Source: a bacterium
Lineage (GTDB): Bacteria > Orphanbacterota > Orphanbacteria > Orphanbacterales > Orphanbacteraceae
Reading direction: 5' to 3'
DNA: 64,000 nucleotides
Assembly (NCBI GenBank): GCA_025782575.1
Contig: JALGYY010000047.1
Location: forward strand, 14,139-78,138
Shown here in pieces: positions 4,801-63,665 of the stretch; position 1 is the stretch's first letter, and the number at the start of each line of letters is the position of its first letter. Both the position numbers and the translations under genes were made by a program. Below the pieces are notes generated by a model. The model was not told where the DNA came from, did not search any database, and worked only from the letters and a program-made list of their open reading frames with translations.

Positions 4801-5190
4801 CGGCTTCGCTTTTGCACTCGCTGGTGCGCCGTCGCCACCGATATTCCGGACAGCATTCTGCCCGCCGTGATCATCGTCCACGTAACCCTCCGTATCGGCA
4901 TCGATCGGACCGCCGTCTCGCTCTGTCTCCATATTTTTCGGCCACTGGCCATTGATAAAATACTTATACCGCACTTCGCCCGGATCGAGGGGGATCGTGA
5001 TCGCCCATGATCCATCGGGTTGCAGCTCAAGGTCGGTTTCGCCCCAGTTGTTCAGCGATCCACGTACGGATACGCTCTTCACCTCTTCCCCTTCGACAGG
5101 AACATAGGTGAATGTAACCTGCTCGGCTCCGGCGAGGGCCGGGATGAGAAAGAGGGAGGTCAGGAGGGCGAGGCGGATTCTGGGACGCAT
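1861..5190 (-). CDS. pulA: Pullulanase-type glycoside hydrolase family 13 (secreted, 1109 aa)
   Basis: Signal peptide MRPRIRLALLTSLFLIPALAGA. GH13 catalytic regions: DGFRFDLMGHH (region II), YNHTNASG, and YISAHDNETFWD, which is the pullulanase-type YVSxHDN motif. An N-terminal CBM-like region is present. The stop abuts the convergent SDR gene. Confidence 0.85.
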   Translation of the reverse strand: MRPRIRLALLTSLFLIPALAGAEQVTFTYVPVEGEEVKSVSVRGSLNNWGETDLELQPDGSWAITIPLDPGEVRYKYFINGQWPKNMETERDGGPIDADTEGYVDDDHGGQNAVRNIGGDGAPASAKAKPVEKRDLAPAPELVDGYARIHYHRPDGQYGGWGLHLWEDTPESVEWGSPWQSAGEDEYGIYWDFRLNDGASKIGFIVHKGDQKDPGPDMTLLIGDHGCEVWLASGSATIFTEVPDLGTLDLGDLSRQRAFWVAAASIAWPVSPGEGDIVRLHFAPDGGLELTKEEITGGESFELAADENGLSKETRAKFPHLAGHKVFSIPQKSVGRAAELLKGALAVSITDESGQLQDATGIQIPGVLDDLFTYDGPLGIEWNDGIPTIRVWAPTARRVDLLLFENTAQTEAKQTVAMTESNGVWSAKGNASWKGMQYLYDLEVYVPSLGEISHHTATDPYSRGLSMNSLRSLVVDLADPDLAPPGWNDLAKPALEAPNDITLYELHIRDFSAFDPEVPEGLRGTFEAFTVESNGSRHLRAIADAGLSHLHLLPAFDIATIEENRSLQAQPGDLSGRPADSEWQQKRVSAMSGQDGFNWGYDPFHYGVPEGSYSTDPDGTARIYEFRRMVQSLADLGLRVVMDVVYNHTNASGLSEKSVLDRVVPGYYHRLNADGIVESSTCCQNTATEHAMMERLMIDDLIHWARDYKVDGFRFDLMGHHMKRNMVAAAESLHALTPEHDGVDGSSIYLYGEGWDFGEVAGGARGANASQLPMAGTGIGTFNDRMRDAVRGGNPFSDRGDQGFATSSWSKGSRGSMEAVDRIRIGLTGNLRDFKFVASNGQPIKGGDMSYAGYTSEPHESINYISAHDNETFWDKIAYSVSDEIGLDDRVRMQNMAVSLVALGQGVPFFHAGVDMLRSKSMDADSYNSGDWFNRLDFTYESNNFGVGLPVAAKNFDRWDVIRPKLTDEKNMPGKEQILRAVNHFREMLMIRKSSPLFRLRSADEMGARLFFHNTGRDQIPGLIVMSISDNAGNLPSLDDQWRQIWVLFNATGEEQCFDAEGRVPGRDLVLHPVLRDSHDSVVRGAHYNKENETICVPARTTTVFVSKN

Positions 5191-22355: not shown

Positions 22356-22946
22356 ATGAGAGGGTCAATAGTCATGAGAGTCGGGAAAATGCAGGTCGCT
22401 GCCATCGCTATCTTTGCGCTTCTCTTCGCGTTCGGGTGCGGTGACGACGAGTCCCCTGTCGGTGCGAACGGCAACGGTATTCCCACCGGAAACCAGGCGC
22501 CGGATTTCGCACTGGCCGATGTCAACTCCTCGTCGGCAACCAATGGTGAAATGGTCTCGCCGCGGGATTACGAAGGAAAAGTATCGGCATGGTACTTCGG
22601 TCGCTCCACCTGAGGTTACTGTCTTAGCCAGTTTGGCTATCTCAACCAGATCCAATCTGAGATCAACGAATCAAAGACGGGCCTCGAAATCCACATCCTG
22701 GGTCTGAACGGCGCAGGCCACGAAGGGGGAAACGGAACAGTCCCCGATTTCGGAACTCTTCCCTGGCTTCAGGATACGGACGAGCAACATGTATGGGAGA
22801 CCTGGTCGGTGACGTACAGAGATGTCGTCATTCTTGATTCTGATAACGAGCCGTTTGCCGTATACAATTTAACGGAAAACGATCTTTCCAGGTCGGAGTA
22901 TCGCGATGCTCTTCGGGCGCTCCTTGATCAGGCAGCCGGAGATTGA
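22356..22946 (+). CDS. TlpA/redoxin-like thiol-disulfide oxidoreductase lipoprotein, predicted selenoprotein (in-frame UGA 22611-22613 read as Sec; UxxC)
   Basis: The track ORF 22356..22613 ends ...KVSAWYFGRST*. The same frame continues with no stop for 110 codons to TGA 22944-22946, giving ...YFGRST-U-GYCLSQFGYL... plus a thioredoxin-fold C-half (VPDFGTLPWLQDTDEQHVWETWSVTYRDVVILDSDNEPFAVYNL). The UGA occupies the first Cys of the CxxC redox motif. Lipoprotein signal ALLFAFGC. Confidence 0.6.
22614..22650 (+). promoter_or_regulatory. Candidate bacterial SECIS hairpin immediately 3' of the UGA
   Basis: GGUU-acugucu-UAGCCA-guu-UGGCUA-ucuc-AACC. Lower 4-bp stem, internal loop, and a 6-bp upper stem starting 12 nt after UGA, with a small G/U-containing apical loop. 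Topology is consistent with bSECIS. Confidence 0.4.
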
Positions 22947-22968
22947 GCATTCGGGAGAAGACTCAGAA

Positions 22969-24723
22969 ATGCCCCGTATGAGTACCGCTTGGCGCCGCTC
23001 TATCGTTTTGCTCTCCATTCTTTCAGTTGCCGCTCTCTTCGGAGGGTGCGGATCTGACGATGACGGTGTGGTCGGTCCCGGAGGATCCGAACTCGCCCTT
23101 TTCATCAACGAGTTGCTCGCGAACAATTCCACAGGACTTGCTGATCCCGACTTTGGTGAGAAGAGCGATTGGATCGAGATTTATAACGGCGAAGGTGAAG
23201 CGGTCGATATGGGCGGATTCGGGTTGACGGATGATCGTTCCCAACCATTTAAGTGGGTTTTTCCTGCCGGCACGATGATCCCGGCCGGCGGGTTCCTGAT
23301 CGTATGGGCAGATGACGGCGACACGACGGCGATCGCCCATCACGCCAACTTCAAGCTGAGTTCCGGCGGAGAAAAAGCAGTGCTGTTCGATGCCGATGGT
23401 AACGTCGTGGATCTCGTTGAATTCGGCGCGCAGGTGGAAGACATCTCCTACGGACGAACGGCGGACGGCGGAGGCCAGTTCGGCACGTTCACCGTTCCCA
23501 CGCCGGGAGTGACGAATGGTGCCGCCGTGACACCGGCCGCGATTCATATCAACGAGTTCCTAGCGGACAATGAAAACGGAATCGTCGATCCGGATTTCGG
23601 TGAAACGGGTGACTGGGTGGAGCTCTATAACAGTGGAGACCTGTCGGCCAATATCGGGGGTTGGACGATGACGGATGATCTCGAGGATCCGGGGCAGTGG
23701 ACCTTTCCGCCGGGAACTTCAATCGACGGCGGGGGCTTCCTTCTCGTATGGGCCGACAAAAACGACACGTCGGCCGTAGCGCATCACACGAATTTCAAGC
23801 TGAGCTCCGGGGGCGAATCGATCGGACTTTTCGATGGGGCAGGGAAAGTGGTGGACAGCCTCACCTACGGCGAGCAGCAACCAGATGTCTCGTACGGCCG
23901 GATCGAGGATGGCGAATCGGAGTTTGCGGGTTTCGGAAGCCCGACGCCCGGGGAAAGTAACGAGAATTCCACGCCGGACGCGCCCCCCGTCATCCATGCG
24001 GTGTGGATCTCGCCGGCATTCCCGACCGCAGAAGATAGCGTCAGGATCACGGCGATCGTTACGGACGATATGTCACTCGGTCTGGTCAGGCTTTTTCACA
24101 ATATCGGCGGCCAGACCGTGGTCGGAATGACCGAGACGGGGGCCGATACATTCTTTGTAGTGTTACCGCCCCAACCATCCGAAACAGTGGTCGAATACTA
24201 TATGGAGGCGACGGACGAAGCCCTGCAGGTTACGAGCGCCCCATCAGACGCTCCAGCATCTCTGTTCAGTTATCTGGTTGCTTCCGCACCTCCGATGGTG
24301 GTGATCAACGAGTTTCTCGCGAGCAACGACAGCACCAATATCGATCCCGATTTCGCGGACTACGGAGACTGGCTGGAGCTATACAACGCCGGCGCATCTC
24401 CGGTCGATCTCGGCGGGTGGTATCTGACTGATGACCTTGCTGATCCGACATTATGGGAGATTCCTTCAAGTACTTCGCTCGCCGTCGGTGCTCATCTGCT
24501 GATCTGGGCGGATGACGGGGACACCACGGGCATCGCTCTTCACACCAATTTCAAGTTGAAGAGTGGTGGGGAGGAGATCGGGCTCTTCACGGCCGGCCAG
24601 GTACCCATGGATACGCTCACCTACGGTGTCCAGGCGACTGACGTATCGTACGGACGATCAACCGATGGCGGTTCGGAGTGGGAGTTCTTCGACATACCGA
24701 CGCCGGGCGAATCGAACGAATAG
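22969..24723 (+). CDS. Lipoprotein with four tandem lamin-tail-domain (LTD) repeats
   Basis: Lipobox AALFGGC. Four ~130-aa repeats of INEfLA-N...DPDFGE-GDW-ElYN.G...-GGw-LTDD...W-fP-gT-I-GGFL-vWADdgD...A-H-NFKL-S-GGE-igLF...G..VD..tYG. This is the LTD (PF00932) signature. Confidence 0.8.
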   Translation: MPRMSTAWRRSIVLLSILSVAALFGGCGSDDDGVVGPGGSELALFINELLANNSTGLADPDFGEKSDWIEIYNGEGEAVDMGGFGLTDDRSQPFKWVFPAGTMIPAGGFLIVWADDGDTTAIAHHANFKLSSGGEKAVLFDADGNVVDLVEFGAQVEDISYGRTADGGGQFGTFTVPTPGVTNGAAVTPAAIHINEFLADNENGIVDPDFGETGDWVELYNSGDLSANIGGWTMTDDLEDPGQWTFPPGTSIDGGGFLLVWADKNDTSAVAHHTNFKLSSGGESIGLFDGAGKVVDSLTYGEQQPDVSYGRIEDGESEFAGFGSPTPGESNENSTPDAPPVIHAVWISPAFPTAEDSVRITAIVTDDMSLGLVRLFHNIGGQTVVGMTETGADTFFVVLPPQPSETVVEYYMEATDEALQVTSAPSDAPASLFSYLVASAPPMVVINEFLASNDSTNIDPDFADYGDWLELYNAGASPVDLGGWYLTDDLADPTLWEIPSSTSLAVGAHLLIWADDGDTTGIALHTNFKLKSGGEEIGLFTAGQVPMDTLTYGVQATDVSYGRSTDGGSEWEFFDIPTPGESNE

Positions 24724-32546: not shown

Positions 32547-32797
32547 GCGCCGCTCCTCACCGAGGCGCCGCTCCTCACCGAGGCGAACGGTCCTTCTCCC
32601 GGGGGCCGTCTCCGGGGCTCCTGATCGTCGCCCCTCGCCTACTCGCTCGGCCGGCCCGTAGAATCTTCGCACGAAAATGGGCAGGGTCTTGACTAACCCT
32701 GCCCATTTTCAATGCTCTCATTCAACGGGGCCGCCGGCCTCGTCTCGTTAATCCCCCCGGGAGAAGGACCGTTCGCCTCGGTGAGGAGCGGCGCCTA
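32547..32797. repeat. MITE-like palindromic element: 41-nt terminal inverted repeats flanking ~150 bp with a central hairpin
   Basis: Left arm 32547-32605 is gcgccgctcctcaccgaggc[gccgctcctcaccgaggc]gaacggtccttctcccggggg, including an 18-nt tandem duplication. Right arm 32754-32794 is its exact reverse complement. Each arm directly abuts a TAG stop codon (32544-46 on +, 32795-97 on -). Confidence 0.6.
32673..32710. terminator. Bidirectional intrinsic terminator inside the palindromic element
   Basis: gaaaatgggcaggg-tcttgactaa-ccctgcccattttc is a perfect 14-bp stem. An A-tract lies on the 5' side and a T-tract on the 3' side, on both strands. Confidence 0.55.
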
Positions 32798-35272
32798 GCG
32801 GAGCAGTACTATCTTCTGTGTGACAGTTTCGCCGCCTGTTTCGAGGCGTAGAAAGTAGATCCCCGCCGCCACACGACCGTTACCGGAACCCAGGCCGTTC
32901 CATGTAGCCGTATGGCGTCCGGCGGACTGAACGCCGGTTACGAGGCGCGAAACGAGCCGGCCTCGTATGTCGTATACGACAAGACTGACATCGGACGTGG
33001 CGGGCAGATTGTAGACGACGGTCGACTGCGACCGGACCGGGTTCGGACGGATGCTTTCGAAGCGGAGCGGACCGCCACCCAGAGGGGGCGCGTCAGGCGT
33101 GCCGGTCGAGGTCCCCTGCTTCAGCACCAGGAGGCCCATCTGGGGAATGGTGAGAAGAGTAGATTGAGTGAAACCATCGGCCGATATCGCATCGACCGTA
33201 ATCGAAGGATTGGTCAGCCCGTTCCCTTCATATTGCGTCGCCTGGCTGTTAATGATCTCTGTCCAGGTGCCTCCGGCCGGGAGGCCGACGCGATAGTTAT
33301 TCCAGTTTCCGTTGTTGAAATTCGCGATGATGACGAAGACGTTGCCGGCGTTGTCCCAGCGTTGCCACGCGATCACATTCCCGCTCTCGTTCTGATGAAA
33401 TACCTGATGAGATGCGTCTGCCCGGAGCGCGGGGTTCGTGGTGCGCCACGAGATCATTTCTTTGTAGTATTGGAAGATCCCCGCGTAGGTCGTCTTCTTT
33501 GACCAGTCGATCCTGTTCGCCGGGTCGGTGCCGAAGTCAGTATCCTCGAGCCATTCGGATCCCATGAGCATGGCCGGCACACCGGGCGAAAACATCACGA
33601 TGCCCTGAGCCAGCTTCGATCGCCCCTTCGCCCACATATCGTCGTGGGGAAAAGTAGTATCGATTGTCTTAACCAGTCGCTGTCCGCCGCTCGACGGCCA
33701 TGCCTCGTCATGAAGTTCCACATAGTTCGTAACCTTGACGCCGCTGAGATCTACACCGCCGCCGTTGATAATGTTACGAATCTTCCAGATTTCCGGGTCG
33801 CCCAGCGCGGCGTCGAAGATCTCCTCGCGAAGACGATCCGTGAAGTTGTCGTAGTATTGGGAATCGAACCCGGCGCCTCCGGTACCGGTTGACCGCGTGA
33901 CCCAGCTGTCATCGGGTAACTGCTCTGCGATCGAAACCTTGTTTGCCCATCGCCAGTCGATCAGATCGTTGAACTCCTGCATGAGTGACCAACCTGACGC
34001 GTCCTGAGGCGGGATATTCATGAAATCGGTCGCATCCATTCGGAACCCGTCGACATGGTATTCCTCGAGCCAGTGAAGGGCACTGTGCAGAAAATAGTCG
34101 CGCACATTCTGGTTGTCGAAATCTGCCTGATCACCCCAGGGGGTACCCACGGCCGGATTGTCGAAGTAGATCTGGTTGCCGTCGTAGAACCAGAGGAAGT
34201 TGTCGGTCGATGAAAAGTGATTCCAGAGAATATCAAGTAACACCGCGATCCCGTGATTGTGAAACGAATCGATCATCGCCTTGCACTCGTCCGGTGTCCC
34301 GTAAACCCAATCGGGGGCGAACTCGGTGACCGGGTTATACCCGGCGGAGAGATCGCCCGCAAACTCGGTGATCGGGTTGAGCATCACAGCGTTGACACCG
34401 AGATCGGCAAGCTGATAAACGCGATTCGCGACGTCGAGATAACCGGACGGGTGAGCGACTGTTCCTTGTGGATCATTCCGCCCTGCAAACGATCCGACGT
34501 GAAGCTGGTAAATCACCATTTCTTCAAGGTCGGGCGTGTCGAAATCCGCGAGTGCCCATGAATACGCAAAGGGATCCTGGATGATCGAATTCTGATTGGC
34601 GGCAGGGTTCAGCCCGCGGGCACGAGGGTCCGGTTTCCAGAGATTGTTGTCGAAATAATACTTGTATTCATCGAGAGGTGACGCGCCCGTCACATGCGCA
34701 ATGTAGTGTTCCCCCACTTTGAATAAGGGATTCGTTGTCGCCCACGCGTTGAACTTTCCCCGCACGCGGGCGGACGTAGGGTTCGGCGCCCATACTTTGA
34801 AAACGACGCCGCTGCTGGTCGGCGTCGCACCGAGCGGCGCATGGTCGAGAGTGAGGAAGTTGACCACATAGCCGCTGTCTAGCGGGACGGCATCAGACAT
34901 TCCGTTGATGCTGTTGTAGTCGGTATCGGTTCCGTCGGTCAGTTCGAAGTAATACTTTGCGATTCCCGATCCGGTCAGCGGCACCTGGGCCGACCAGATG
35001 TCGTAAGGGCCCCGGCCCCCTGCGAGTGATCCTGAAAGAGTGTCGAGAAGGCCGCCGTCATCTACGAAAACCTGCAGAGCCGTGATGTCATTGGCCCACG
35101 TCTGGATTCGCACTTCGAACGATTCGGACGAAATCGGTGCGAGTGGCCTCCGGTCCTGCCAGGGAATGTGCGAGACACCGTTCCACTCGACATTGTTGTC
35201 TGGAGCGGCTGCAAACAGGGTCGTGGCACCCACACAGGCGGCCAGACAGAACAGAAAGGACTTTCGTAGCAT
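32795..35272 (-). CDS. GH13 alpha-amylase-family enzyme with N-terminal CBM48-like domain and C-terminal T9SS sorting domain
   Basis: Signal peptide. GVVFKVWAPNPTSARVRGKFNAW (CBM48/E-set), HVDGFRMDATDFM (GH13 region II), NYVELHDE. C-terminal ...AAGIYFLRLETGGETVTQKIVLLR is a Por/T9SS CTD. Confidence 0.8.
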   Translation of the reverse strand: MLRKSFLFCLAACVGATTLFAAAPDNNVEWNGVSHIPWQDRRPLAPISSESFEVRIQTWANDITALQVFVDDGGLLDTLSGSLAGGRGPYDIWSAQVPLTGSGIAKYYFELTDGTDTDYNSINGMSDAVPLDSGYVVNFLTLDHAPLGATPTSSGVVFKVWAPNPTSARVRGKFNAWATTNPLFKVGEHYIAHVTGASPLDEYKYYFDNNLWKPDPRARGLNPAANQNSIIQDPFAYSWALADFDTPDLEEMVIYQLHVGSFAGRNDPQGTVAHPSGYLDVANRVYQLADLGVNAVMLNPITEFAGDLSAGYNPVTEFAPDWVYGTPDECKAMIDSFHNHGIAVLLDILWNHFSSTDNFLWFYDGNQIYFDNPAVGTPWGDQADFDNQNVRDYFLHSALHWLEEYHVDGFRMDATDFMNIPPQDASGWSLMQEFNDLIDWRWANKVSIAEQLPDDSWVTRSTGTGGAGFDSQYYDNFTDRLREEIFDAALGDPEIWKIRNIINGGGVDLSGVKVTNYVELHDEAWPSSGGQRLVKTIDTTFPHDDMWAKGRSKLAQGIVMFSPGVPAMLMGSEWLEDTDFGTDPANRIDWSKKTTYAGIFQYYKEMISWRTTNPALRADASHQVFHQNESGNVIAWQRWDNAGNVFVIIANFNNGNWNNYRVGLPAGGTWTEIINSQATQYEGNGLTNPSITVDAISADGFTQSTLLTIPQMGLLVLKQGTSTGTPDAPPLGGGPLRFESIRPNPVRSQSTVVYNLPATSDVSLVVYDIRGRLVSRLVTGVQSAGRHTATWNGLGSGNGRVAAGIYFLRLETGGETVTQKIVLLR

Positions 35273-44215: not shown

Positions 44216-46216
44216 CTAGCGGAAGTGCACGACCCGTCCTTTTCGTTCATCGTTTCCGACGGCGACACGCCAGAAGTAGACACCAGACCGGACTTCAGCG
44301 CCACTGTCATCGCGGCCGTCCCATGTGGTTTCATAGGCGCCGGGTGACTTCGATTCGTTCACGAGGTTTCGAACGCGCCGGCCGGCTACATTGTAAATCG
44401 CCACTTCCACCGATGCGCTCGACACGCCGCTGACGGAGTAGGCGAGACGGGTGCTCTCACGGAACGGGTTGGGTGCGGCGCCGAACAGCGTTGATATCGG
44501 CCGACCCGCGGTTCCCTCAGTAATGCCGGTGGCAGGGCCCGTTACTGAATAGCCTCTCTCCGTGAACCGGTCAATCATTGCAGTGATATCCGAACCGGAG
44601 TAATTCATATTGATAGCCGCCTGAAGCATAGCCTGCGCGGCGTCTTCCTGGTTCGTCGATGAGTTCGTCATTGCGAGCCCTTCCAGGCAGGCTTTGTCGG
44701 TCAGCTCGCGGCCGATGTCATTCCAGATTCTCATGAGACCGGTCGACCAGATCTGGCCGTCCGTATGAATCTGGTTGATCAGGCCACCCGGATAAATAGC
44801 CCCGTAGTTTGTCTTACGCCCGCCCCAGAACGGATTGTGCCCGTCCCAGCTGAAGACCCACTGGTATTCCGGCGTGCCGGGCACCCACTGGCCGAGGCTC
44901 CGGCTGTAGGAAGCGGCCATGTAGTCGCCGAAGCCTTCGCTCAGCCCGTTCACCTGAGAGAGGCTCCCCCCTGTCAACCAGTCGTGAATGCCGTGGCCCA
45001 GTTCGTGGATCACCACATCGGCATCCTCGGAATCATCGACCCCTCCTTCGCCGAACGAGATTCGGCCGGATCCGCTCAAATAGTACGAGTTGTCGGAGCC
45101 GCTCAGCCCATGCGGATCGAACTGGACGCCGCCGCCGTACTGGTAGGGAGAAAGGGTCAGCCCAAGTGTAGTGTTGATGTAGCGCATGATGTTATCGATA
45201 TGCCAGTAACAGAGCACTGCCTCAAACCCGTTGTCCTGCCGATTGAAAAGAAAGTCAGGGCCGGCCTGCGCGAAAAGCCCGCGGAAAGGATTCTCGAAAT
45301 CGATGACCTCCGCGTAGGGCCCCTCGAGCTTGTACTGCCCGCCTGAAAACAGTATGTCGGGGAGATTCTTCAGAAACCGCTCGGCATCGAGCTGGGCATT
45401 TGTGGAGTCGCTGTTATCCGCGTAGTTTCCGCCGTAGGAAACCTGGGCGCTTGATAGCGGATCGGGATCCCAAAGATAGCCCGTTCCGGTTGCGTAAAAC
45501 GCCTTATCCTCCGCACGAAAAATCTCTCCCGTATGGGCGTCAAAAAGTATTTCCCACTCGCCGATCGGTCCGTCAACCGCGTGGAGAGTCATCTTCCACG
45601 CTAGTCGGGGAGCATCACCGTTCGGATAGACGACCAGCTCGGTTTTTTCGTAAGAGAGTGCACCTTGAATTTCCAGGTATTCCAGCGCGGCGGTGCGTGC
45701 CACGGCAGCGGAAAGGGAAGGGTGGGTGGAAGGAAGAAGAGCGGCGTCTACCGATTCCACGCCGTTCATCACGAAGACCACTGAATTGTCATGGTCTATC
45801 GTAATGGCGACATCGGCGCCGTAAACCGGGACGCCGCCTGCGTGTTGCACGAATCGCACGACCGTGCCTGCCTGACCGGCGCGTGTCATCCTGTGGACCA
45901 TCTCGTCGAGTGCGCGCTCGCTGATGTGCAGGGTTTCCCTCGCCTCGCGTAGATATTGACGTGCCATCTCGCGGGGTGATTCCCCGGTTACCTCGTGATC
46001 GAGGTTGTAGAGCGTGATCGGTCTGCCCGTCTCAGTGTTTACTCTCGCGTTTCCGTCCAGGTGAGTCGGTGCCATCCTCTCGGACAGGGGGATTCGCTCG
46101 AGCATGTCCATCTTGAGGGACGCTGTTTTCGGTCGTTTTGCCTCGGATTCTCCAGGCAATAAGAGAGCTGCGGCGAACAGGGCGGCCGCGCACATCAGGA
46201 TGCGACGTTTCATCAT
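44216..46216 (-). CDS. Secreted zinc metallopeptidase (HExxH; M4/M36-like) with C-terminal T9SS sorting domain
   Basis: Signal peptide MMKRRILMCAAALFAAALLLPGESEA. VVIHELGHGIHD (HExxH) and downstream EGFGDY (third zinc ligand, Glu). C-terminal ...SGVYFWRVAVGNDERKGRVVHFR is a T9SS CTD. Confidence 0.7.
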   Translation of the reverse strand: MMKRRILMCAAALFAAALLLPGESEAKRPKTASLKMDMLERIPLSERMAPTHLDGNARVNTETGRPITLYNLDHEVTGESPREMARQYLREARETLHISERALDEMVHRMTRAGQAGTVVRFVQHAGGVPVYGADVAITIDHDNSVVFVMNGVESVDAALLPSTHPSLSAAVARTAALEYLEIQGALSYEKTELVVYPNGDAPRLAWKMTLHAVDGPIGEWEILFDAHTGEIFRAEDKAFYATGTGYLWDPDPLSSAQVSYGGNYADNSDSTNAQLDAERFLKNLPDILFSGGQYKLEGPYAEVIDFENPFRGLFAQAGPDFLFNRQDNGFEAVLCYWHIDNIMRYINTTLGLTLSPYQYGGGVQFDPHGLSGSDNSYYLSGSGRISFGEGGVDDSEDADVVIHELGHGIHDWLTGGSLSQVNGLSEGFGDYMAASYSRSLGQWVPGTPEYQWVFSWDGHNPFWGGRKTNYGAIYPGGLINQIHTDGQIWSTGLMRIWNDIGRELTDKACLEGLAMTNSSTNQEDAAQAMLQAAINMNYSGSDITAMIDRFTERGYSVTGPATGITEGTAGRPISTLFGAAPNPFRESTRLAYSVSGVSSASVEVAIYNVAGRRVRNLVNESKSPGAYETTWDGRDDSGAEVRSGVYFWRVAVGNDERKGRVVHFR

Positions 46217-46383
46217 TAGAATATTCCCTCGGGAGCGGGTTTTCGAAATCAGGCAGAACCGGTCTGGTACTGGGAGGCCCTCATTATAGAGGAAAAGGGC
46301 GCGGAAATCCACAAGAAGAAAAACGGGACAAATAGAGATCGCCGGTCTGCGGAACGGGCGGGCCGTCTGGTCCTACTGATTTT

Positions 46384-48137: not shown

Positions 48138-49943
48138 ATGCGTCTCCGTTTGAAGAGTTCAGCTGGACACCTGACGACAATTGCTCTCGGATTTCTGTTC
48201 CTGCTTGCCTGGGGCGGTTCGGCCGCGGCCGGCACCGATGCTTGGCGGGACAAGATCCAGGCGGGCCTCCTGGAAGAGGCTACGACTCTGGAGACCGAGT
48301 TTCTCGTCTTTCTCGGCGAGCAGGCTGATCTTTCGGCGGCGGCCCTGATGGGGACGAAATTAGAGAAAGGTCGCTACGTTTTCGAAACGCTGAGCCGTAC
48401 GGCCGATCTTACACAGGCCTCTCTTCTGAATGTACTCGAGGGGGAAGGGGTGCCACATCGACCCTACTGGGTGGCCAATATGGTCTGGGTCAAAGGGGAC
48501 GCTACGCTCGTAGAACGAATGGCGGAGCGAGCGGATGTGCGGGGCGTTTACGCGAATCCGATCGTCCAGTTTGAACAGCCTGTGGCGATCGAGGCGGGCG
48601 CACCGAAGGTGGCGGGAATCGAATGGAACATCTCCCAGGTGAACGGCCCGAACGTCTGGGCCATGGGGAACACCGGACAGGGGACGGTGGTCGGGGGAAT
48701 CGACACGGGCTATGACTGGGATCACCCGGCCGTTATCGATCAGTATCGTGGTTGGGACGGTGTCTCGGCCGATCATAATTACAATTGGCACGACGCGATT
48801 CACTCGGGGAGCGGCGGGTCGTGCGGGCTTGACTCGGCTGTTCCTTGCGATGACCACGGACATGGTACTCACACGATGGGGACCATGGTGGGAGATGACG
48901 GCGGCAGCAATCAGATCGGCCTCGCTCCGGGCGCGAAGTGGGTCGGTTGCCGTTGCATGGATGTGGGCTTCGGTACGCCTGCGCGCTACACGGAGTGTCT
49001 CGAGTGGATGATCGCCCCCACCGATCTGAACGACATGTTCCCCGACCCGTCGAAAGCACCCGACGTGATCAATAATTCGTGGAGCTGCCCCCCTAGCGAG
49101 GGGTGCACCGATCCACTCGTCATGCAGACAGTGGTTGAGAATGTGAAGGCGGCGGGAATCGTCGTTGTAGTGAGTGCGGGGAATTCGGGATCGGCTTGCA
49201 GCACGGTCGAAGATCCGATCGCTATTTATGAAGCATCGTTTTCAGTCGGTGCGACTGACGACAATGACGACATTGCAGGCTTCAGCAGCCGCGGTCCTGT
49301 CACTTCGGACGGCAGCAATCGTATGAAACCTCAGGTGAGCGCGCCGGGAGTGATCGTCCGTTCCTGCGTTCCGGGTACCGGTTATACCAGCCTGAGCGGG
49401 ACGAGCATGGCAGGGCCACACGTGGCCGCGGCGGCTGCGCTTGTGATCGCCGCGAATCCCGTTCTCCAGGGGCAGGTCGACAATGTCGAAAGCATTCTCG
49501 AGCAGACGGCGCTTGCCCGTACCACTACCCAGACTTGTGGCGGTGTTCCGGGAACGAGCATTCCGAATAACACATACGGCTGGGGGCGGATTGACGCGCT
49601 GGCCGCTGTAAATGAAGCAATCAGCCAGGCGGTTTCGGTGGATGGCGCAAACGCCGTTCCCGCCCGCTATTCTCTCTCCGCAGCCATGCCGAATCCCTTC
49701 AACCCGCGCACTACCATTCGATTCGACATCCCGGAGCGTAGCGATGTTTCGATCCGTGTGTTTGATGTGGTCGGCCGTGAAGTGCGCCCCCTGATCAGCA
49801 GAACGAACCTCGAGGCAGGTCGGCACTCCGTCGATTGGAACGGTCTCGACAGTCGTGGCGACGACGTACCGTCAGGCATCTACTTCTATCGCATGAACGC
49901 CGGCGAATTCCAGTCGACCGGCCGGATGGTTCTGGTTCGGTGA
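48138..49943 (+). CDS. Subtilisin-like serine peptidase (S8) with C-terminal T9SS sorting domain
   Basis: Catalytic triad motifs VVGGIDTGYDWDHPA (D), HGTHTMGTMVG (H), GTSMAGPHVAAAAAL (S). C-terminal ...SGIYFYRMNAGEFQSTGRMVLVR is a T9SS CTD. Confidence 0.85.
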   Translation: MRLRLKSSAGHLTTIALGFLFLLAWGGSAAAGTDAWRDKIQAGLLEEATTLETEFLVFLGEQADLSAAALMGTKLEKGRYVFETLSRTADLTQASLLNVLEGEGVPHRPYWVANMVWVKGDATLVERMAERADVRGVYANPIVQFEQPVAIEAGAPKVAGIEWNISQVNGPNVWAMGNTGQGTVVGGIDTGYDWDHPAVIDQYRGWDGVSADHNYNWHDAIHSGSGGSCGLDSAVPCDDHGHGTHTMGTMVGDDGGSNQIGLAPGAKWVGCRCMDVGFGTPARYTECLEWMIAPTDLNDMFPDPSKAPDVINNSWSCPPSEGCTDPLVMQTVVENVKAAGIVVVVSAGNSGSACSTVEDPIAIYEASFSVGATDDNDDIAGFSSRGPVTSDGSNRMKPQVSAPGVIVRSCVPGTGYTSLSGTSMAGPHVAAAAALVIAANPVLQGQVDNVESILEQTALARTTTQTCGGVPGTSIPNNTYGWGRIDALAAVNEAISQAVSVDGANAVPARYSLSAAMPNPFNPRTTIRFDIPERSDVSIRVFDVVGREVRPLISRTNLEAGRHSVDWNGLDSRGDDVPSGIYFYRMNAGEFQSTGRMVLVR

Positions 49944-50054
49944 TACGGGACGGCCGGCCAAGCCATTCTTCTTATCGAGTCCGGCGCGCTTTCACCACCA
50001 TTGAAAAGCCGCGGCTGTTCCGGTATTCTAAGCCGGTTAGACGAATTGTCACGA

Positions 50055-50205
50055 CTCGGTGGTCAACCGGAAGCCGGTGAGAATCCGGCGCGGCCCCGCC
50101 ACTGTATGCGGTGACGAAACCCGAAACGAACCACTGGAAGCCGCCCGCCGGCGACCGGGAAGGATCGGGGAGTAGGGAGACCCGCAAGCCAGGAGACCGA
50201 CCCCT
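50055..50205 (+). promoter_or_regulatory. Cobalamin (B12) riboswitch
   Basis: cGGUGgucAAccGGAAgccGGUGagAAUCCggcGCgGcCCCGCcACUGU matches the B12-element core (GGUG..AAnGGGAA..GGUGnAAnUCC...GCnGnCCCGCnACUGU, with the B12 box GCCACUG at 50098-50104). The 3' conserved AGCCAGGAGACC is at 50188-50199. It lies 170 nt upstream of ATG 50373, which has an AGGAGG RBS. Confidence 0.6.
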
Positions 50206-50372
50206 GAGTCCGGAAGCCGGAGTGAACGATCGCTTCAGGGCTTCCATTCTTCCCAGCCTTCGTGGGCAAGGACTTGGGGATCGGCCGCCGTGTTTCGATT
50301 TCTACAGAGCGACCGCACCTCTTTTCGTTGCCTCCCGGTTGGGTTTCATAGCCCTGTTCCCAGGAGGTTATC

Positions 50373-51191
50373 ATGCTGAACATTTATTGGCGCCAAGCGT
50401 GTCGGACATTACCGGTGGCGATGGCACTGTCTGTTTCATTACTAGCGGTTTCACAGGCACATGCCGGCTTCCCCGACACGGGCCAGCAGAATCTGGAAGT
50501 CGATCGCTCGGACGGAAGCATTATTGCCTGGGCTTCCGGCGTGGCCGGGTTCGATCGAGGGCCGGTCGACTACCAGAACCCGGGGCTCGGTGATGCGTCG
50601 TTCGGTACGGATACCGACCCTCTCGGATCGTCAGGCACCCCGTTCAGCCTGGGGGACGGCGGATGGATCACGTTCACATTCGACGCGCCCATACTGAACG
50701 GTGCCGGGGCGGACTTCGTCGTGTTCGAAAACGCTTTCGAGTTCGGCGGACTGGTATTCATGGAACTCGGCTTTGTCGAAGTGAGCAGCGACGGTGCCCT
50801 GTTCTCGCGCATGCCGGCGCTCTCCAGAAAAGCAGCCCCCACAGGTCCGTTCGACGGCTCCGATCCTGCCGACTTCTATAACCTGGCTGGAAACTTTGTG
50901 GGTGGGACGGCGTTCGACCTGGAAGATCTGATTACGGCAGGTGATCCGAATGTTGTCGGCGGCCAGGTTGATCTGACAGCAATTACGCATATACGCGTAG
51001 TCGATGGGGTGGGAGACATCGTCGGTCCGGGCGCGACAACCGACTGCCTGAACCGGCCGGTGTCCGACGCCTACCCGACCGCGTTCGCGAGCGGTGGGTT
51101 CGACGCTACCGGGGTGGGCGTGATTCACTCCGTCCCGAGCACGTCTACAGAATCTGTCAGCTGGGGGGATGTGAAGAGCATTTTCCGCTAA
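50373..51191 (+). CDS. Secreted hypothetical protein (putatively B12-riboswitch controlled)
   Basis: AGGAGG RBS. Signal peptide with AHA-G cleavage (VAMALSVSLLAVSQAHA). Gly/Asp-rich beta-type sequence with no recognised domain. Monocistronic; the next gene is convergent. Confidence 0.5.
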   Translation: MLNIYWRQACRTLPVAMALSVSLLAVSQAHAGFPDTGQQNLEVDRSDGSIIAWASGVAGFDRGPVDYQNPGLGDASFGTDTDPLGSSGTPFSLGDGGWITFTFDAPILNGAGADFVVFENAFEFGGLVFMELGFVEVSSDGALFSRMPALSRKAAPTGPFDGSDPADFYNLAGNFVGGTAFDLEDLITAGDPNVVGGQVDLTAITHIRVVDGVGDIVGPGATTDCLNRPVSDAYPTAFASGGFDATGVGVIHSVPSTSTESVSWGDVKSIFR

Positions 51192-51250: not shown

Positions 51251-51793
51251 CTACAAGTCGGCTTCGAGCAACTCGAACGCACGCTGGGCGCCGCTTGCCA
51301 CCCTGTATAGCTCCTCAGCGTGTTGGGGTGCAAACCGTTCTGCGAAGATGTGGTCGAAATAGCGTAGAAGTGGATCGAAGTACCCGTCGGTATTCAGCAG
51401 CACGACCGGCTTGTCATGAAGTCCGAGCTGGCGAAGAGTAATCTCCTCGACCACCTCCTCGAGCGTGCCGAATCCGCCGGGAAGTGCGAGAAAGGCGTCC
51501 GCCCGTTCTTCCATTATTTTTTTTCGATCCCGGAGATTACTCGTTACGATCAATTCGTCCGCATCGGTGTAAGCGAGTTCCCTGTCGCGCAGCGCTTCGG
51601 GTATAACTCCGACGACCTTCCCGCCGTGCTCGTGGCTCGTACGAGCCAGAACGCCCATGAGACCAACGTTCGCGCCTCCGTAAATAAGCGTGTAGCCCCG
51701 TGATGCCATCACGGCCCCCACCTGGCGTGCGGATTCATAGAATATCCGGCGTGCCGAATCACTCGACGCACAGTAAACGCAGATCGATTTCAT
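51251..51793 (-). CDS. LOG family protein (TIGR00730; cytokinin riboside 5'-monophosphate phosphoribohydrolase-like)
   Basis: MKSICVYCASS N-terminus, GGANVGLMG, and PGGFGTLEE, which are LOG-family signatures. Confidence 0.8.
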   Translation of the reverse strand: MKSICVYCASSDSARRIFYESARQVGAVMASRGYTLIYGGANVGLMGVLARTSHEHGGKVVGVIPEALRDRELAYTDADELIVTSNLRDRKKIMEERADAFLALPGGFGTLEEVVEEITLRQLGLHDKPVVLLNTDGYFDPLLRYFDHIFAERFAPQHAEELYRVASGAQRAFELLEADL

Positions 51794-51849
51794 GTAGAGA
51801 GAGTAAACTCTGGACACGGTCGGCGCAAGTCAGTGGCGCAGAAAACGGT

Positions 51850-60782: not shown

Positions 60783-63563
60783 TTAGCGGATCATTACGAT
60801 CCGATGTGTTACCGTCTGATTCCCGGCACGATGGCGTGCGAGATAAACCCCCGCCGCCAGTGCTCTGCCCCGTTCATCCCGTCCATCCCAGAGTAGCACG
60901 TTCTCCCCGGCTGATGCGCCTCTCCTTTCCAGGTGCCTCACTTCTCTTCCCGCCGGCGTGTAGATCGTAACCGCCAGATCAGCACTTCCGGGAAGATGAA
61001 AACGGAATCCGACGGACTGCTGGAATGGACTGGGGTAGGCATGCATGAAACGAGGCTTTCCCGCAGCAGCATTTGAAAGGTCATCGGAATCAAGCGATGC
61101 GATCAGCGTGAAGTGCTTCGTCAGACCGGTAGCGGCGACCAAGACCGAACCGTCAGGATCGACCGGGACGCGCGACCCGGTATCCTTGTTGACCCATGTA
61201 AGTTTTAACTCTTCCGGCAAATCAAAGCTGATAAACCGAATGAGGACCTCGCCCGGTCCTTCTACGCCGCTGAGCACGATCTCCCATTTATTCGAACGGG
61301 CGGGAGGTACGAAGTCGTGGACGTAATCACCGCTCATCGCTCCCCAATTGTGGTGCGGTAGATAGAGCCGTAGTCCGCCATCCGGGGGGTGAGGGGGGAG
61401 TGCTCGGCTGAGGGGATTCCATTTATTACCGGCGTCATTTGATACGCCGACGAGAACGGCAGCACCGACCGCTTCATTCGTTGTCGCCCGAATACTGATC
61501 GCCCAATCCGCATCAACCGGTTTGGAGACGGGCATCGGCTCTATGGATCGATACTTCTGCACGGCGTCGATTGGAAAGATCAGATGAGCGGGGCCATCTG
61601 TCAGTTTGCGTATCCAGAACCCCACACCACGCCCGAAGCCACTGAGATCGAGATACTGATCGCCGAACCAGGATTGTACCGTCCGATCAGTCAGATCGTT
61701 TTCGCTGCTCGTAACCTGGACCGTGTCGATGCCGTCGGTCACGAGCAGGTCATTCGTCAATATTGTTCCGTTATGAGGGAATCCGATCTGGTTCCAGGCG
61801 GCCGCGCCGCCGGGACCGCTCGCGAGCGAGACCGAGACGTCTCCTTCCGGGTAGAATCCCCATGGCGTAAAGAGGGAATCGACAGAACCGTCGGTTATCA
61901 TCCAGTAGCCGGCGCCCGTTTCTGTCATGTCGGTTGCCGATACCAGATCTTCATAGGCTTCATCGGCCGGACTCCAATGCCCCACTTTCCAGGTCTTGTC
62001 GTTGAACGGACCAAGAGTATCCATGATGGCGGTGATGCTTCGCTCACCTGCAGTCTCGGGGGCGAGTGGAAACGAAACCATATCCCATCGACGTTCGACG
62101 AGCGGGAAGATGATCGCGTTCGGAGTAACAGCGGGGGCGTTCATCACAGTGAGATCGGTCGTGTCGGCACACCCGGCACGGCTGGCGATAATCGATGTCG
62201 TCCCTTCCGTAAGGCCGAGCGCCTCCCCTTCCGACGAGATTGTCGCGATCGAAATACTCGTTGACTTCCAGATCGAGGCGACTTCGCTCTCGAAATCGGC
62301 ATCGGGCCACACGCCGCTCCGGAACCGCCCGGTTGCCGTGTACTCTAGAATCTCATCGGTTTCGATCGTGTCGTTCGCCGGTTCAACGGTGAGCTCTAGC
62401 AATTCAGCCTCAAACAGGTATTTCAGGTCGCCGTTCCCCTTGTCGTAGTAGGTGATCTGGGCGAATCCCAAAGTGTCGAGACGGAGGGTCACGATCTCGC
62501 CGACATCTCCCTCGGTATCGAAATCAAAGTCCTCCCATTGATCGTCGGTGATCCGGACGGCGAGATTGAGATCAGCCTCGGGAAGGACATAGTAAGCGAT
62601 AATCGGTCCGAACCGGCTCACGTCGATTGAAACGGGTCGGCTGTCTCCCCATATGCCCGCGTCGTCAACCAGTTCCGGATTGAAATCACTCTCCCGTGCC
62701 GCGAAGTAGAGATTGGCCTGGCCGGGGATCATGTCTTCTGTCGATTCAACCCAGGCGATGTAGACATCATTCTGATCGTCGATAGCGATGGAGGACCAGC
62801 CGATACCGTTGTCCGACGGCAGGTCGAGCGTGGCGACTCTCACTCGTTCCCAGTCGCCGCTCTCGTTGGTGACGTAGTGAACGTTGATGGAGTCGTCGTA
62901 GATATTCGTGTAGCTGATGTGCGCCTTACCCTCACTGTCGAGTACAAGCTGACACTCGAACCCGGCGAATTCCGACGAGTCGACAGTCTGATGGATAAAG
63001 AGGTCGCCATTCAGGAACGCGTACTCGAGGTTCAGGCTGTCGTTGTCGCAATAGGCGATGTGTGGATTGCCCTGTTCGTCCACAGTCAATGAGGACCATG
63101 ATCCTTCTGTGAGAGTATCGGCGGAAGAGACAAGCGTGCGGACCCAGTCCCCCGGTCGGTTTCGTACGGCGTACCAGAGCTCAGCATCTGCACGGTTCTC
63201 TTCGGTCACGTAGTAGGTGACATGGGGAATACCGCCCGAATCTACGGCGATTGAGTTGTACCAGCCGGCCTCACCGGCCGTCTGAATGATTTCCGGTGGT
63301 GTGAATTGAAGAGTCGACTTTTCGTAGCGTGTGTAGAAGATCGATCCGCTCTCTTCGTCGAAGTAGACGATGTGAGCCCTGCCCTCGCTATCGAGATCCA
63401 TAGCGGACCAGCGGCCGGCATTGCCTGCGGTGACGAGCGACTCGGTAAAGAACAGTGTGAACCCGCCGCCCGCGTGGACGGGGGCCGGAAACAGTATCGC
63501 AATCACCCCGATCAGGCAGGCGATTCCGGACGACACATATCGATTTCGCTCACACTTAAACAT
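60783..63563 (-). CDS. Large T9SS-secreted surface protein: N-terminal beta-propeller-like repeats, Big_2 domain, C-terminal Por sorting domain
   Basis: Signal peptide (start taken at the ATG giving MFKCERNRYVSSGIACLIGVIAILFPAPVHA). Repeated H[IV]xY blades (HIVYFDEE, HVTYYVTEE, HIAYCDND, HISYTNIY, YIAWVEST). Big_2-like segment (TVEPANDTIETDEILEYTATG...). C-terminal ...AAGVYLARHRAGNQTVTHRIVMIR. Confidence 0.65.
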   Translation of the reverse strand: MFKCERNRYVSSGIACLIGVIAILFPAPVHAGGGFTLFFTESLVTAGNAGRWSAMDLDSEGRAHIVYFDEESGSIFYTRYEKSTLQFTPPEIIQTAGEAGWYNSIAVDSGGIPHVTYYVTEENRADAELWYAVRNRPGDWVRTLVSSADTLTEGSWSSLTVDEQGNPHIAYCDNDSLNLEYAFLNGDLFIHQTVDSSEFAGFECQLVLDSEGKAHISYTNIYDDSINVHYVTNESGDWERVRVATLDLPSDNGIGWSSIAIDDQNDVYIAWVESTEDMIPGQANLYFAARESDFNPELVDDAGIWGDSRPVSIDVSRFGPIIAYYVLPEADLNLAVRITDDQWEDFDFDTEGDVGEIVTLRLDTLGFAQITYYDKGNGDLKYLFEAELLELTVEPANDTIETDEILEYTATGRFRSGVWPDADFESEVASIWKSTSISIATISSEGEALGLTEGTTSIIASRAGCADTTDLTVMNAPAVTPNAIIFPLVERRWDMVSFPLAPETAGERSITAIMDTLGPFNDKTWKVGHWSPADEAYEDLVSATDMTETGAGYWMITDGSVDSLFTPWGFYPEGDVSVSLASGPGGAAAWNQIGFPHNGTILTNDLLVTDGIDTVQVTSSENDLTDRTVQSWFGDQYLDLSGFGRGVGFWIRKLTDGPAHLIFPIDAVQKYRSIEPMPVSKPVDADWAISIRATTNEAVGAAVLVGVSNDAGNKWNPLSRALPPHPPDGGLRLYLPHHNWGAMSGDYVHDFVPPARSNKWEIVLSGVEGPGEVLIRFISFDLPEELKLTWVNKDTGSRVPVDPDGSVLVAATGLTKHFTLIASLDSDDLSNAAAGKPRFMHAYPSPFQQSVGFRFHLPGSADLAVTIYTPAGREVRHLERRGASAGENVLLWDGRDERGRALAAGVYLARHRAGNQTVTHRIVMIR

Positions 63564-63665
63564 GGTAGGCGAATGGTAACCGCTCCGCCCCGGGCTGTCC
63601 AGAGCCTGCGAAGGGGAGACAGTCCCGGGATTTCGATTTTTCATTTTGGCGGTCGGGTACCCGGC

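Follow-up and report, generated by a model that had tools for sequence, protein, structure and literature searches.

The gene at positions 50373–51191 (+ strand, stop codon included) of the analysed stretch of bacterial DNA (64,000 nucleotides, in the following referred to as the window) encodes a predicted secreted protein of 272 amino acids which, judged by profile comparisons and its predicted structure, is a divergent relative of the B12-binding BtuH domain at the superfamily level. The gene lies behind a full-length cobalamin riboswitch, and its family is linked across phyla to cobalamin riboswitches and B12-uptake operons. With a probability of roughly two in three, the locus is a B12-repressed unit whose secreted product would bind corrinoids in a BtuH-like manner and pass them to a BtuB-type transporter; that the protein plays some part in corrinoid acquisition is very likely. 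New here are the different anchoring and C-terminal half, the frequent organization as a stand-alone riboswitch unit, and the distribution beyond gut Bacteroides.

Competition for B12 shapes microbial communities, and the surface binders BtuG, BtuH, BtuJ, and BtuK have been studied almost only in gut Bacteroides. The family described here is a much larger sister family of BtuH that comprises ~3,500 clusters (50% identity) and lacks a Pfam model. Its genes are associated with cobalamin riboswitches and BtuB operons in metagenome-assembled genomes (MAGs) labelled Gemmatimonadales, Fibrobacteraceae, Thermoanaerobaculaceae, and Deltaproteobacteria, and the linkage is also seen in metagenome operons encoding proteins with type-IX secretion tails. 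If corrinoid binding holds true, the family would help to annotate B12 scavenging better in metagenomes from soil, sediment, and aquatic habitats, and would offer a second, naturally occurring BtuH-type pocket for comparison. The advance is incremental: the breadth of the family is somewhat unexpected, the concept unsurprising given BtuH, BtuJ, and BtuK.

A monocistronic gene behind a cobalamin riboswitch

A cmscan search of the whole 64-kb window with the Rfam models gave a single match, a cobalamin riboswitch aptamer (RF00174) at 50043–50219 (+ strand) with 81.2 bits (E = 2e-18; gathering score 31.5), which covers the full model (positions 1–189 of 189). The end of the aptamer and the ATG of the BtuH-like gene on the same strand are separated by 153 nt, and a promoter-like site (TTGAAA-17 nt-TATTCT, 50001–50029, + strand, 9 of 12 matches in a consensus scan) is located 5′ of the aptamer. 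The start codon is preceded 6 nt upstream by AGGAGG. Given 565 homologs in a word-indexed search, 3,485 representative homologs in a profile search, and a confident AlphaFold model (see below), the ORF represents a real gene rather than a chance reading frame. The next real gene on the 3′ side, a LOG/lysine-decarboxylase-like gene at 51251–51817 (− strand), is convergent, and the unit is therefore monocistronic; the upstream neighbour of the riboswitch unit encodes an S8 peptidase with a FlgD_ig tail (48138–49943). A sequence-only reading of this DNA had described a riboswitch 5′ of a monocistronic gene with a convergent neighbour, a signal peptide cut after AHA, and two protein motifs, and each of these features was recovered, the motifs at residues 96–124 and 206–224. 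Genes for BtuB, BtuF, or other Btu proteins were not found within the 64-kb window, and tblastn searches of the window with TonB receptor, DUF4465, DUF5074, DUF4430, BtuF, and ~470-aa FlgD_ig protein queries retrieved generic FlgD_ig tails only.

The segment between aptamer and start codon (50220–50372, + strand) was assigned from sequence and folds as the candidate expression platform. It contains, all on the + strand, GGGCAAGG at 50264–50271, an imperfect hairpin followed by UUUUCGUU at about 50276–50328, the candidate anti-Shine–Dalgarno (anti-SD) element CCUCCCGG at 50331–50338, and the Shine–Dalgarno (SD) sequence CCAGGAGG at 50360–50367. A three-element design is plausible, in which the SD would pair with the anti-SD, and the anti-SD alternatively with the upstream GGGCAAGG element; similar three-element layouts were present in five orthologous leaders (loci L001, L002, L006, L088, and L089). 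RNAalifold gave no consensus structure for an automatic alignment of nine leaders, and the summed energy of the SD duplexes (−112.4 kcal/mol) showed no excess over that of dinucleotide shuffles (−112.5 kcal/mol). Neither test supports the three-element design, and SD sequestration is therefore kept as a hypothesis only. The fold stability of the expression platform was not unusual (z = −1.75), and a search for a canonical terminator in the leader found none. Going by general knowledge of cobalamin riboswitches in Gram-negative bacteria, control at the level of translation is the more likely mode.

A large family of proteins with diverse anchoring

No Pfam family matched the window protein in a scan to E = 1, and NCBIfam, which also lacks a model for genuine BtuH-type sequences, gave a sub-threshold match to LIC_13355 (NF033170) as the sole result. 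All 565 homologs from the word-indexed search were annotated as hypothetical protein or ‘cell surface protein’, and PEP-CTERM or T9SS C-terminal sorting domains are present in some of them. When a profile of 53 sequences was run against 1.84 billion representatives (clusters at 50% identity), 3,485 proteins were obtained at E ≤ 1e-3 and 1,306 at E ≤ 1e-30. The architectures comprise stand-alone proteins of 257–345 aa and many fusions reaching 2,235 aa, with at least four styles of anchoring; a Pfam scan of the 53 profile members identified sorting tails only. The ~650-aa fusions were considered as BtuG–BtuH fusions like BT1490, but the fusion P0176 showed a T9SS tail only and no BtuG match. 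A literature search retrieved no relevant prior description of riboswitch-linked ‘cell surface proteins’ outside Bacteroides and no paper describing the clade of the window protein.

Homologs of BtuH occur ‘predominantly in Bacteroidota’ plus three Firmicutes according to a 2026 review, which also describes the roles of BtuH as not yet known (PMC13616437). In contrast, the named sources of the present family were MAGs labelled Fibrobacteraceae, Gemmatimonadales, Deltaproteobacteria, Kapaibacterium, and Thermoanaerobaculaceae.

Linkage to riboswitches and B12-uptake genes

A cobalamin-clan riboswitch was detected by Rfam scan upstream of the homolog, always on the same strand, in 40 of the 75 loci with enough upstream DNA, and in 48 of 84 loci once eight close orthologs were counted. 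Co-occurrence with B12 riboswitches had been suggested as a check by the sequence-only reading, which would have been at odds with a widespread family lacking such a link; the count of 48 linked loci contradicts this scenario. Where the full 4–6 kb of upstream DNA were available, the proportion was 25 of 36. By our own estimate, based on a rule of thumb of ~1 riboswitch per 0.5–1 Mb of genome, fewer than one would be expected by chance in the about 0.46 Mb concerned. The riboswitch was located directly 5′ of the homolog in about 15 loci, and one to three genes lay between in others.

Clustering and Pfam searches assigned the neighbouring genes to TonB-dependent receptors (14 loci), DUF5074 beta-propellers (16 loci), the B12-binding BtuJ family DUF4465 (12 loci), DUF4430-containing T9SS proteins (8 loci), and BtuF-type periplasmic binding proteins (6 loci). 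DUF4465 genes shared an operon with the homolog in at least 12 riboswitch-bearing loci, with further BLAST matches in other loci. Such B12-uptake-type genes were also found on the same strand in 26 of the 35 loci in which no riboswitch was detected; in many of these, the operon is cut off where the retrieved DNA ends, so that its head was not captured. Taken together, 66 of 75 loci from different phyla showed linkage to a riboswitch or a BtuB operon. Like BtuH, the family is accordingly found in riboswitch-controlled cobamide loci; the window itself has the riboswitch only, with no transporter within 64 kb.

The linkage was complete among the close relatives of the window protein (53–65% identity, about 260 aa), for which eight loci on long contigs and, in addition, a single PEP-CTERM variant were analysed. 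All eight loci contained the riboswitch. In six of them it was located immediately 5′ of a monocistronic gene whose neighbours were unrelated, as is usual for this subfamily and different from BtuH, and in two it headed an operon encoding a TonB receptor, a ~470-aa FlgD_ig protein, and the homolog. One of the eight (L085) was syntenic with the window. With L001, L002, L005, L006, and the window itself included, a riboswitch link was found in every testable member of the subfamily. The ~470-aa FlgD_ig partner was examined by sequence as a BtuG-like propeller and gave weak NHL and regucalcin hints.

Predicted fold and relationship to BtuH

AlphaFold2, run with the 53-sequence alignment, predicted a beta-sandwich for the window protein with a mean pLDDT of 90.2 and a pTM of 0.84, in which the BtuH-like domain spans about residues 45–252 (50505–51128, + strand). 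The closest solved structures were B12-binding BtuH domains, which scored above all carbohydrate-binding modules (CBMs) with alignments longer by 40–50 residues, and the model has the fold of the C-terminal globular domain of BtuH2. The BtuH set from B. thetaiotaomicron comprises BtuH2 (BT1956, PDB 7BIZ), BtuH1 (BT1488), and the H-domain of BtuG1, also termed BtuGH (BT1490, PDB 8BLW). The latter forms a C-terminal extension of ~250 residues with homology to BtuH2 and a second B12 site (PMC10404256).

The beta-rich structure anticipated by the sequence-only reading was hence recovered as a beta-sandwich. Its statement that no BtuB-, BtuF-, or BtuG-like fold could be recognised was correct, and a BtuG propeller or BtuF identity was ruled out for the window protein; the resemblance to BtuH had been overlooked, and the supposedly novel fold or factor turned out to be a divergent relative of a domain described in 2022 (PMC8941943). 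The further suggestion of a B12-repressed surface enzyme found no support, since the fold is that of a binding module (CBM32/discoidin-like) and no catalytic family was matched. In contrast, its proposal of a riboswitch-controlled, secreted, cobalamin-related protein that probably binds or scavenges corrinoids is strongly supported by the riboswitches, the B12 operons, and the BtuH-like fold.

The relationship to BtuH was also evident at the profile level. Among PDB sequences, the family profile matched residues 371–476 of the BtuG1 extension with E = 0.03, and with E = 1e-3 when a 76-sequence profile was used. For direct comparisons, the sequences of the BtuG1 H-domain and of BtuH2 were reconstructed in part from printed alignments and database fragments. 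The BtuH2 fragment served as seed for a BtuH profile of 14 aligned BtuH-type proteins; homolog searches seeded with the BtuG1 H-domain fragment gave gene fragments only. In hhalign, the family profile aligned to the BtuH profile with 95% probability (E = 3.7e-8) over 60 columns only, and to the single H-domain fragment with 84% probability (E = 7e-6). With an identity of about 21%, the homology is visible by profile methods only and is confined to the first ~100 residues of the domain. Three motifs are shared, given here as family/BtuH: SLGDGG-IT-TF/SLGGFGG-I-VGF, DFVVFENAF/DF-x-x-x-GNAF, and ELGFVEVSSDG/EPGIVWVMQD.

Residues of the candidate B12 site

The hhalign alignments place the core motif DFVVFENAF (residues 114–122; 50712–50738, + strand) at a functionally relevant part of BtuH2: Asn120 aligned with Asn399 and Phe122 with Phe401, while Glu131 (50763–50765) aligned with Glu406 and Asp66 with Gln333. 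The BtuH2 numbering was derived from 7biz_A (chain index + 100) and was checked on Gln333 (q233), Asn399 (n299), Phe401 (f301), and Glu406 (e306). In BtuH2, Asn399 and Glu406 form part of a Na/Ca site, with Asn399 also in contact with the phosphate; Phe401 packs against the lower ligand, and Gln333 contacts the ribose (PMC8941943, PMC13616437). Both family alignments revealed Asn120 and Glu131 as invariant and Phe122 as conserved in at least 90% of the sequences.

The C-terminal half of the window protein is ~40 residues shorter than that of BtuH, and the confidence of hhalign (global, relaxed) was near zero in this region. In BtuH2, this half holds the corrin contacts His476, Tyr510, Trp511, and Trp577, which are left without aligned counterparts, together with a part of the metal site (Asp522, Ser582, and Glu584). 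This unmappable C-terminal half is the main weakness in the argument for B12 binding, as judged from the alignments.

Signal peptide and C-terminal tail

Residues 1–31 (50373–50465, + strand) were read from the sequence as a Sec-type signal peptide. The N terminus MLNIYWRQACRTLPVAMALSVSLLAVSQAHA/GF has the n/h/c layout of such peptides, with predicted cleavage after the AHA at residues 29–31 and no lipobox cysteine; residues 2–29 were modelled by AlphaFold2 as a lone helix. Homologs align at the AxA motif, which is followed by F-x-D-x-G-Q. This sets the window protein (AHA/G, cysteine-free) apart from BtuH-type sequences with their SC(N/S) lipoboxes, and members of the family are instead anchored via PEP-CTERM, a T9SS C-terminal domain, or a short conserved tail.

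A recognised sorting domain is absent from the window protein, which ends in the conserved 10-residue tail SWGDVKSIFR (51159–51188, + strand). According to the family alignment, this tail, with the consensus S/T-W-G/S-x-V-K-x-L-Y/F-R in the ~260-aa subfamily, occupies the position of the PEP-CTERM, VPDSG-CTERM, or T9SS C-terminal domains of other subfamilies. With a Sec signal as its only sorting element, the window protein could be periplasmic if the host is diderm; alternatively, the S/T-W-G-x-V-K-x-L-Y/F-R tail is possibly a new sorting tag.

Proposed function and alternative explanations

We propose that, at low intracellular cobalamin, the riboswitch would permit expression of the mRNA and that the protein would be exported via Sec, ending up in the periplasm, at the cell surface, or in the medium. 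At this location, it would bind a corrinoid at its nucleotide-loop/phosphate end via Asn120, Phe122, and Glu131, probably with Ca2+, and hand it over to a TonB-dependent BtuB-type transporter whose gene would lie elsewhere in the genome. With ample B12, the aptamer would be occupied and expression turned off, most likely at translation initiation.

Secreted HasA-type haemophores capture a scarce tetrapyrrole cofactor and deliver it to a TonB-dependent receptor; they differ from the BtuH-like protein in fold and ligand, and the analogy is a functional one. By this analogy, the ~260-aa subfamily may represent soluble, released ‘cobalophores’ that are induced by B12 starvation, exported past the outer membrane by means of the C-terminal tail, and capture environmental corrinoids for delivery to an unlinked TonB-dependent receptor. 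We regard this extension as speculative and rather doubtful. If true, the corrin-contacting half of the pocket would be unlike that of BtuH, and a widespread B12-scavenging strategy analogous to that of haemophores would exist in non-Bacteroidota environmental bacteria, outside the coverage of Pfam.

Among the alternatives to corrinoid binding and delivery, an accessory role in B12 uptake fares best, although we consider it unlikely. The protein would then not bind complete corrinoids and would serve as a docking or relay partner of BtuB/BtuG, or as a binder of cobinamide, of the lower-ligand base, or of a corrinoid–protein complex. The operon and riboswitch context indicates a B12-related role and does not specify the ligand, and it is the corrin-contacting half of the BtuH domain that is not conserved. 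Some surface proteins from B12 loci of B. thetaiotaomicron, such as BtuL, bind no cobamides (PMC13616437). In L048, the homolog is directly followed by the gene for CobT (DBI_PRT), which acts in lower-ligand activation; L010 and L031 gave matches to the same neighbour cluster. However, the residues shared with BtuH2 are precisely those at the phosphate/metal site and the lower ligand of B12, and B12 was bound by every BtuH-type domain tested, namely BtuH1, BtuH2, and the H-domain of BtuGH (PMC12751083, PMC13616437).

Cobalt uptake genes are classical targets of cobalamin riboswitches, and cobalt transporters are commonly under their control. Together with the many invariant acidic residues of the family (Asp95, Asp114, Glu119, Glu131, Asp182, Asp211, Asp224, and Asp244), this could point to a binder of cobalt or nickel that supplies cobalt for B12 synthesis. 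Such a function is highly improbable: the neighbouring genes are of the BtuB, BtuF, DUF4465 (BtuJ), and DUF5074 (tentatively BtuG-like) types and not CbiMNQO or CbtA, and the Ca/Na sites of BtuH2 and of CBM32 folds account for the acidic residues.

The fold has a general likeness to CBM32/discoidin (F5/8 type C) domains such as the CBM32 of AlyQ (7D2A). A generic carbohydrate-binding or adhesin module with an incidental riboswitch link is likewise highly improbable, given the lower scores and shorter alignments of these domains (110–130 residues), the lack of a Pfam CBM or F5_F8_type_C match in all 53 members, the absence of glycoside hydrolase fusions or other links to glycoside hydrolases in the sampled loci, and the B12-uptake context in 66 of 75 loci across phyla.

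Comparison with other secreted protein families

The favoured assignment as a BtuH-like corrinoid binder was compared with two further families. The LIC_13355 lipoprotein of Leptospira (NF033170) resembles the window protein in its length of about 273 aa, and residues 107–142 matched its model with E = 2.7e-4; membership was rejected, as this 36-residue local match reached 20.2 bits against a cutoff of 120 bits. Proteins of the BtuJ family (DUF4465; PF14717, IPR027828) are likewise secreted beta-jellyrolls encoded in riboswitch-controlled B12 loci, and they are widespread beyond Bacteroidota (PMC13398666). The window protein gave no match to DUF4465 at E = 1, nor did the 53 profile members at E = 10, and membership was rejected here as well; the true DUF4465 neighbours in the family loci matched the DUF4465 model at E = 1e-57.

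Genes associated with the BtuH-like family

Inspection of the fetched loci carrying homologs of the BtuH-like protein (L-numbers, with locus-internal coordinates) identified a CobT gene (DBI_PRT, L048:1926-2948) directly 3' of the BtuH-like gene in L048, where an AdoCbl-II class riboswitch precedes the gene pair. CobT is the nicotinate-nucleotide:dimethylbenzimidazole phosphoribosyltransferase, and members of the same neighbour cluster were found in L010 (1539-2552) and L031 (2851-3858). Besides uptake, the CobT neighbour thus ties the BtuH-like proteins to activation of the lower ligand or to remodelling of corrinoids.

In L086, two divergent cobalamin riboswitches are located back to back (4463-4654, minus strand, and 4722-4910, plus strand), and the minus-strand element heads the gene for a FlgD_ig-tailed protein of 475 aa (region L086:2825-4910). 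In L090 (region 3565-4956) and L092 (region 3544-4971), a gene separating the TonB receptor gene from that of the BtuH-like protein encodes a product 31-41% identical to it. Together, these FlgD_ig-tailed proteins form a second family of uncharacterised proteins with a riboswitch link. They may be beta-propellers, given weak hints of NHL and regucalcin, and the putative fold therefore makes them candidate BtuG analogues. In three operons controlled by a riboswitch (L014:7107-8591, L016:5208-7025, and L017:4177-5883), the TonB receptor is followed by a conserved protein of 494-605 aa that has no match in Pfam and is another unannotated component of these B12 loci.

In several loci (L026:241-3460, L093:84-1959, L018, L035, and L043), PEP-CTERM or other variants of the homolog adjoin a protein combining an N-terminal methylation motif with a DUF1559/SBP_bac_10 domain, a combination typical of Planctomycetes-like genomes; the gene order in L026 is riboswitch, DUF4465, homolog, and DUF1559 protein. 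Further arrangements comprised two tandem paralogous copies of the BtuH-like domain gene (L041, L051, L062, and L077) and an approximately 828-aa fusion protein (2369-4858) with the homolog as its C-terminal part (L049 and L072). In L049, a second cobalamin riboswitch (4993-5108) begins right behind the fusion-protein gene. For the homolog of L068 (3878-4846, plus strand), no cobalamin riboswitch was found in the 4 kb upstream; the TPP riboswitch immediately 5' of it (3618-3706) lies on the opposite, minus strand and heads a divergent gene.

C-terminal tails and secretion

The approximately 260-aa subfamily, which includes the BtuH-like protein of the window, has a conserved C-terminal tail (window 51159-51188) with the consensus S/T-W-G/S-x-V/I-K-x-L-Y/F-R. 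It occupies the position of the PEP-CTERM, VPDSG-CTERM, or T9SS domains in other subfamilies, was absent from all other ORFs of the window, and may act as a short sorting tag at the C-terminus. In L087, an unrelated ORF of 223 aa (1857-2528) ends in ...SWGSLKVLYH.

The BtuH-like protein of the window has no FlgD_ig or T9SS-type tail. Such tails are present on many secreted enzymes encoded in the window, namely an S8 peptidase, an alpha-amylase, an M36-like peptidase, and a BNR protein. The tailed enzymes, together with a window-encoded protein containing three Lamin Tail Domains (regions for this set of proteins: 22906-24723, 32795-35272, 44216-46312, 48138-49943, and 60783-63644), suggest that the source organism uses type-IX-like secretion and is a member of the Fibrobacterota-Chlorobiota-Bacteroidota (FCB) group or of a lineage related to it.
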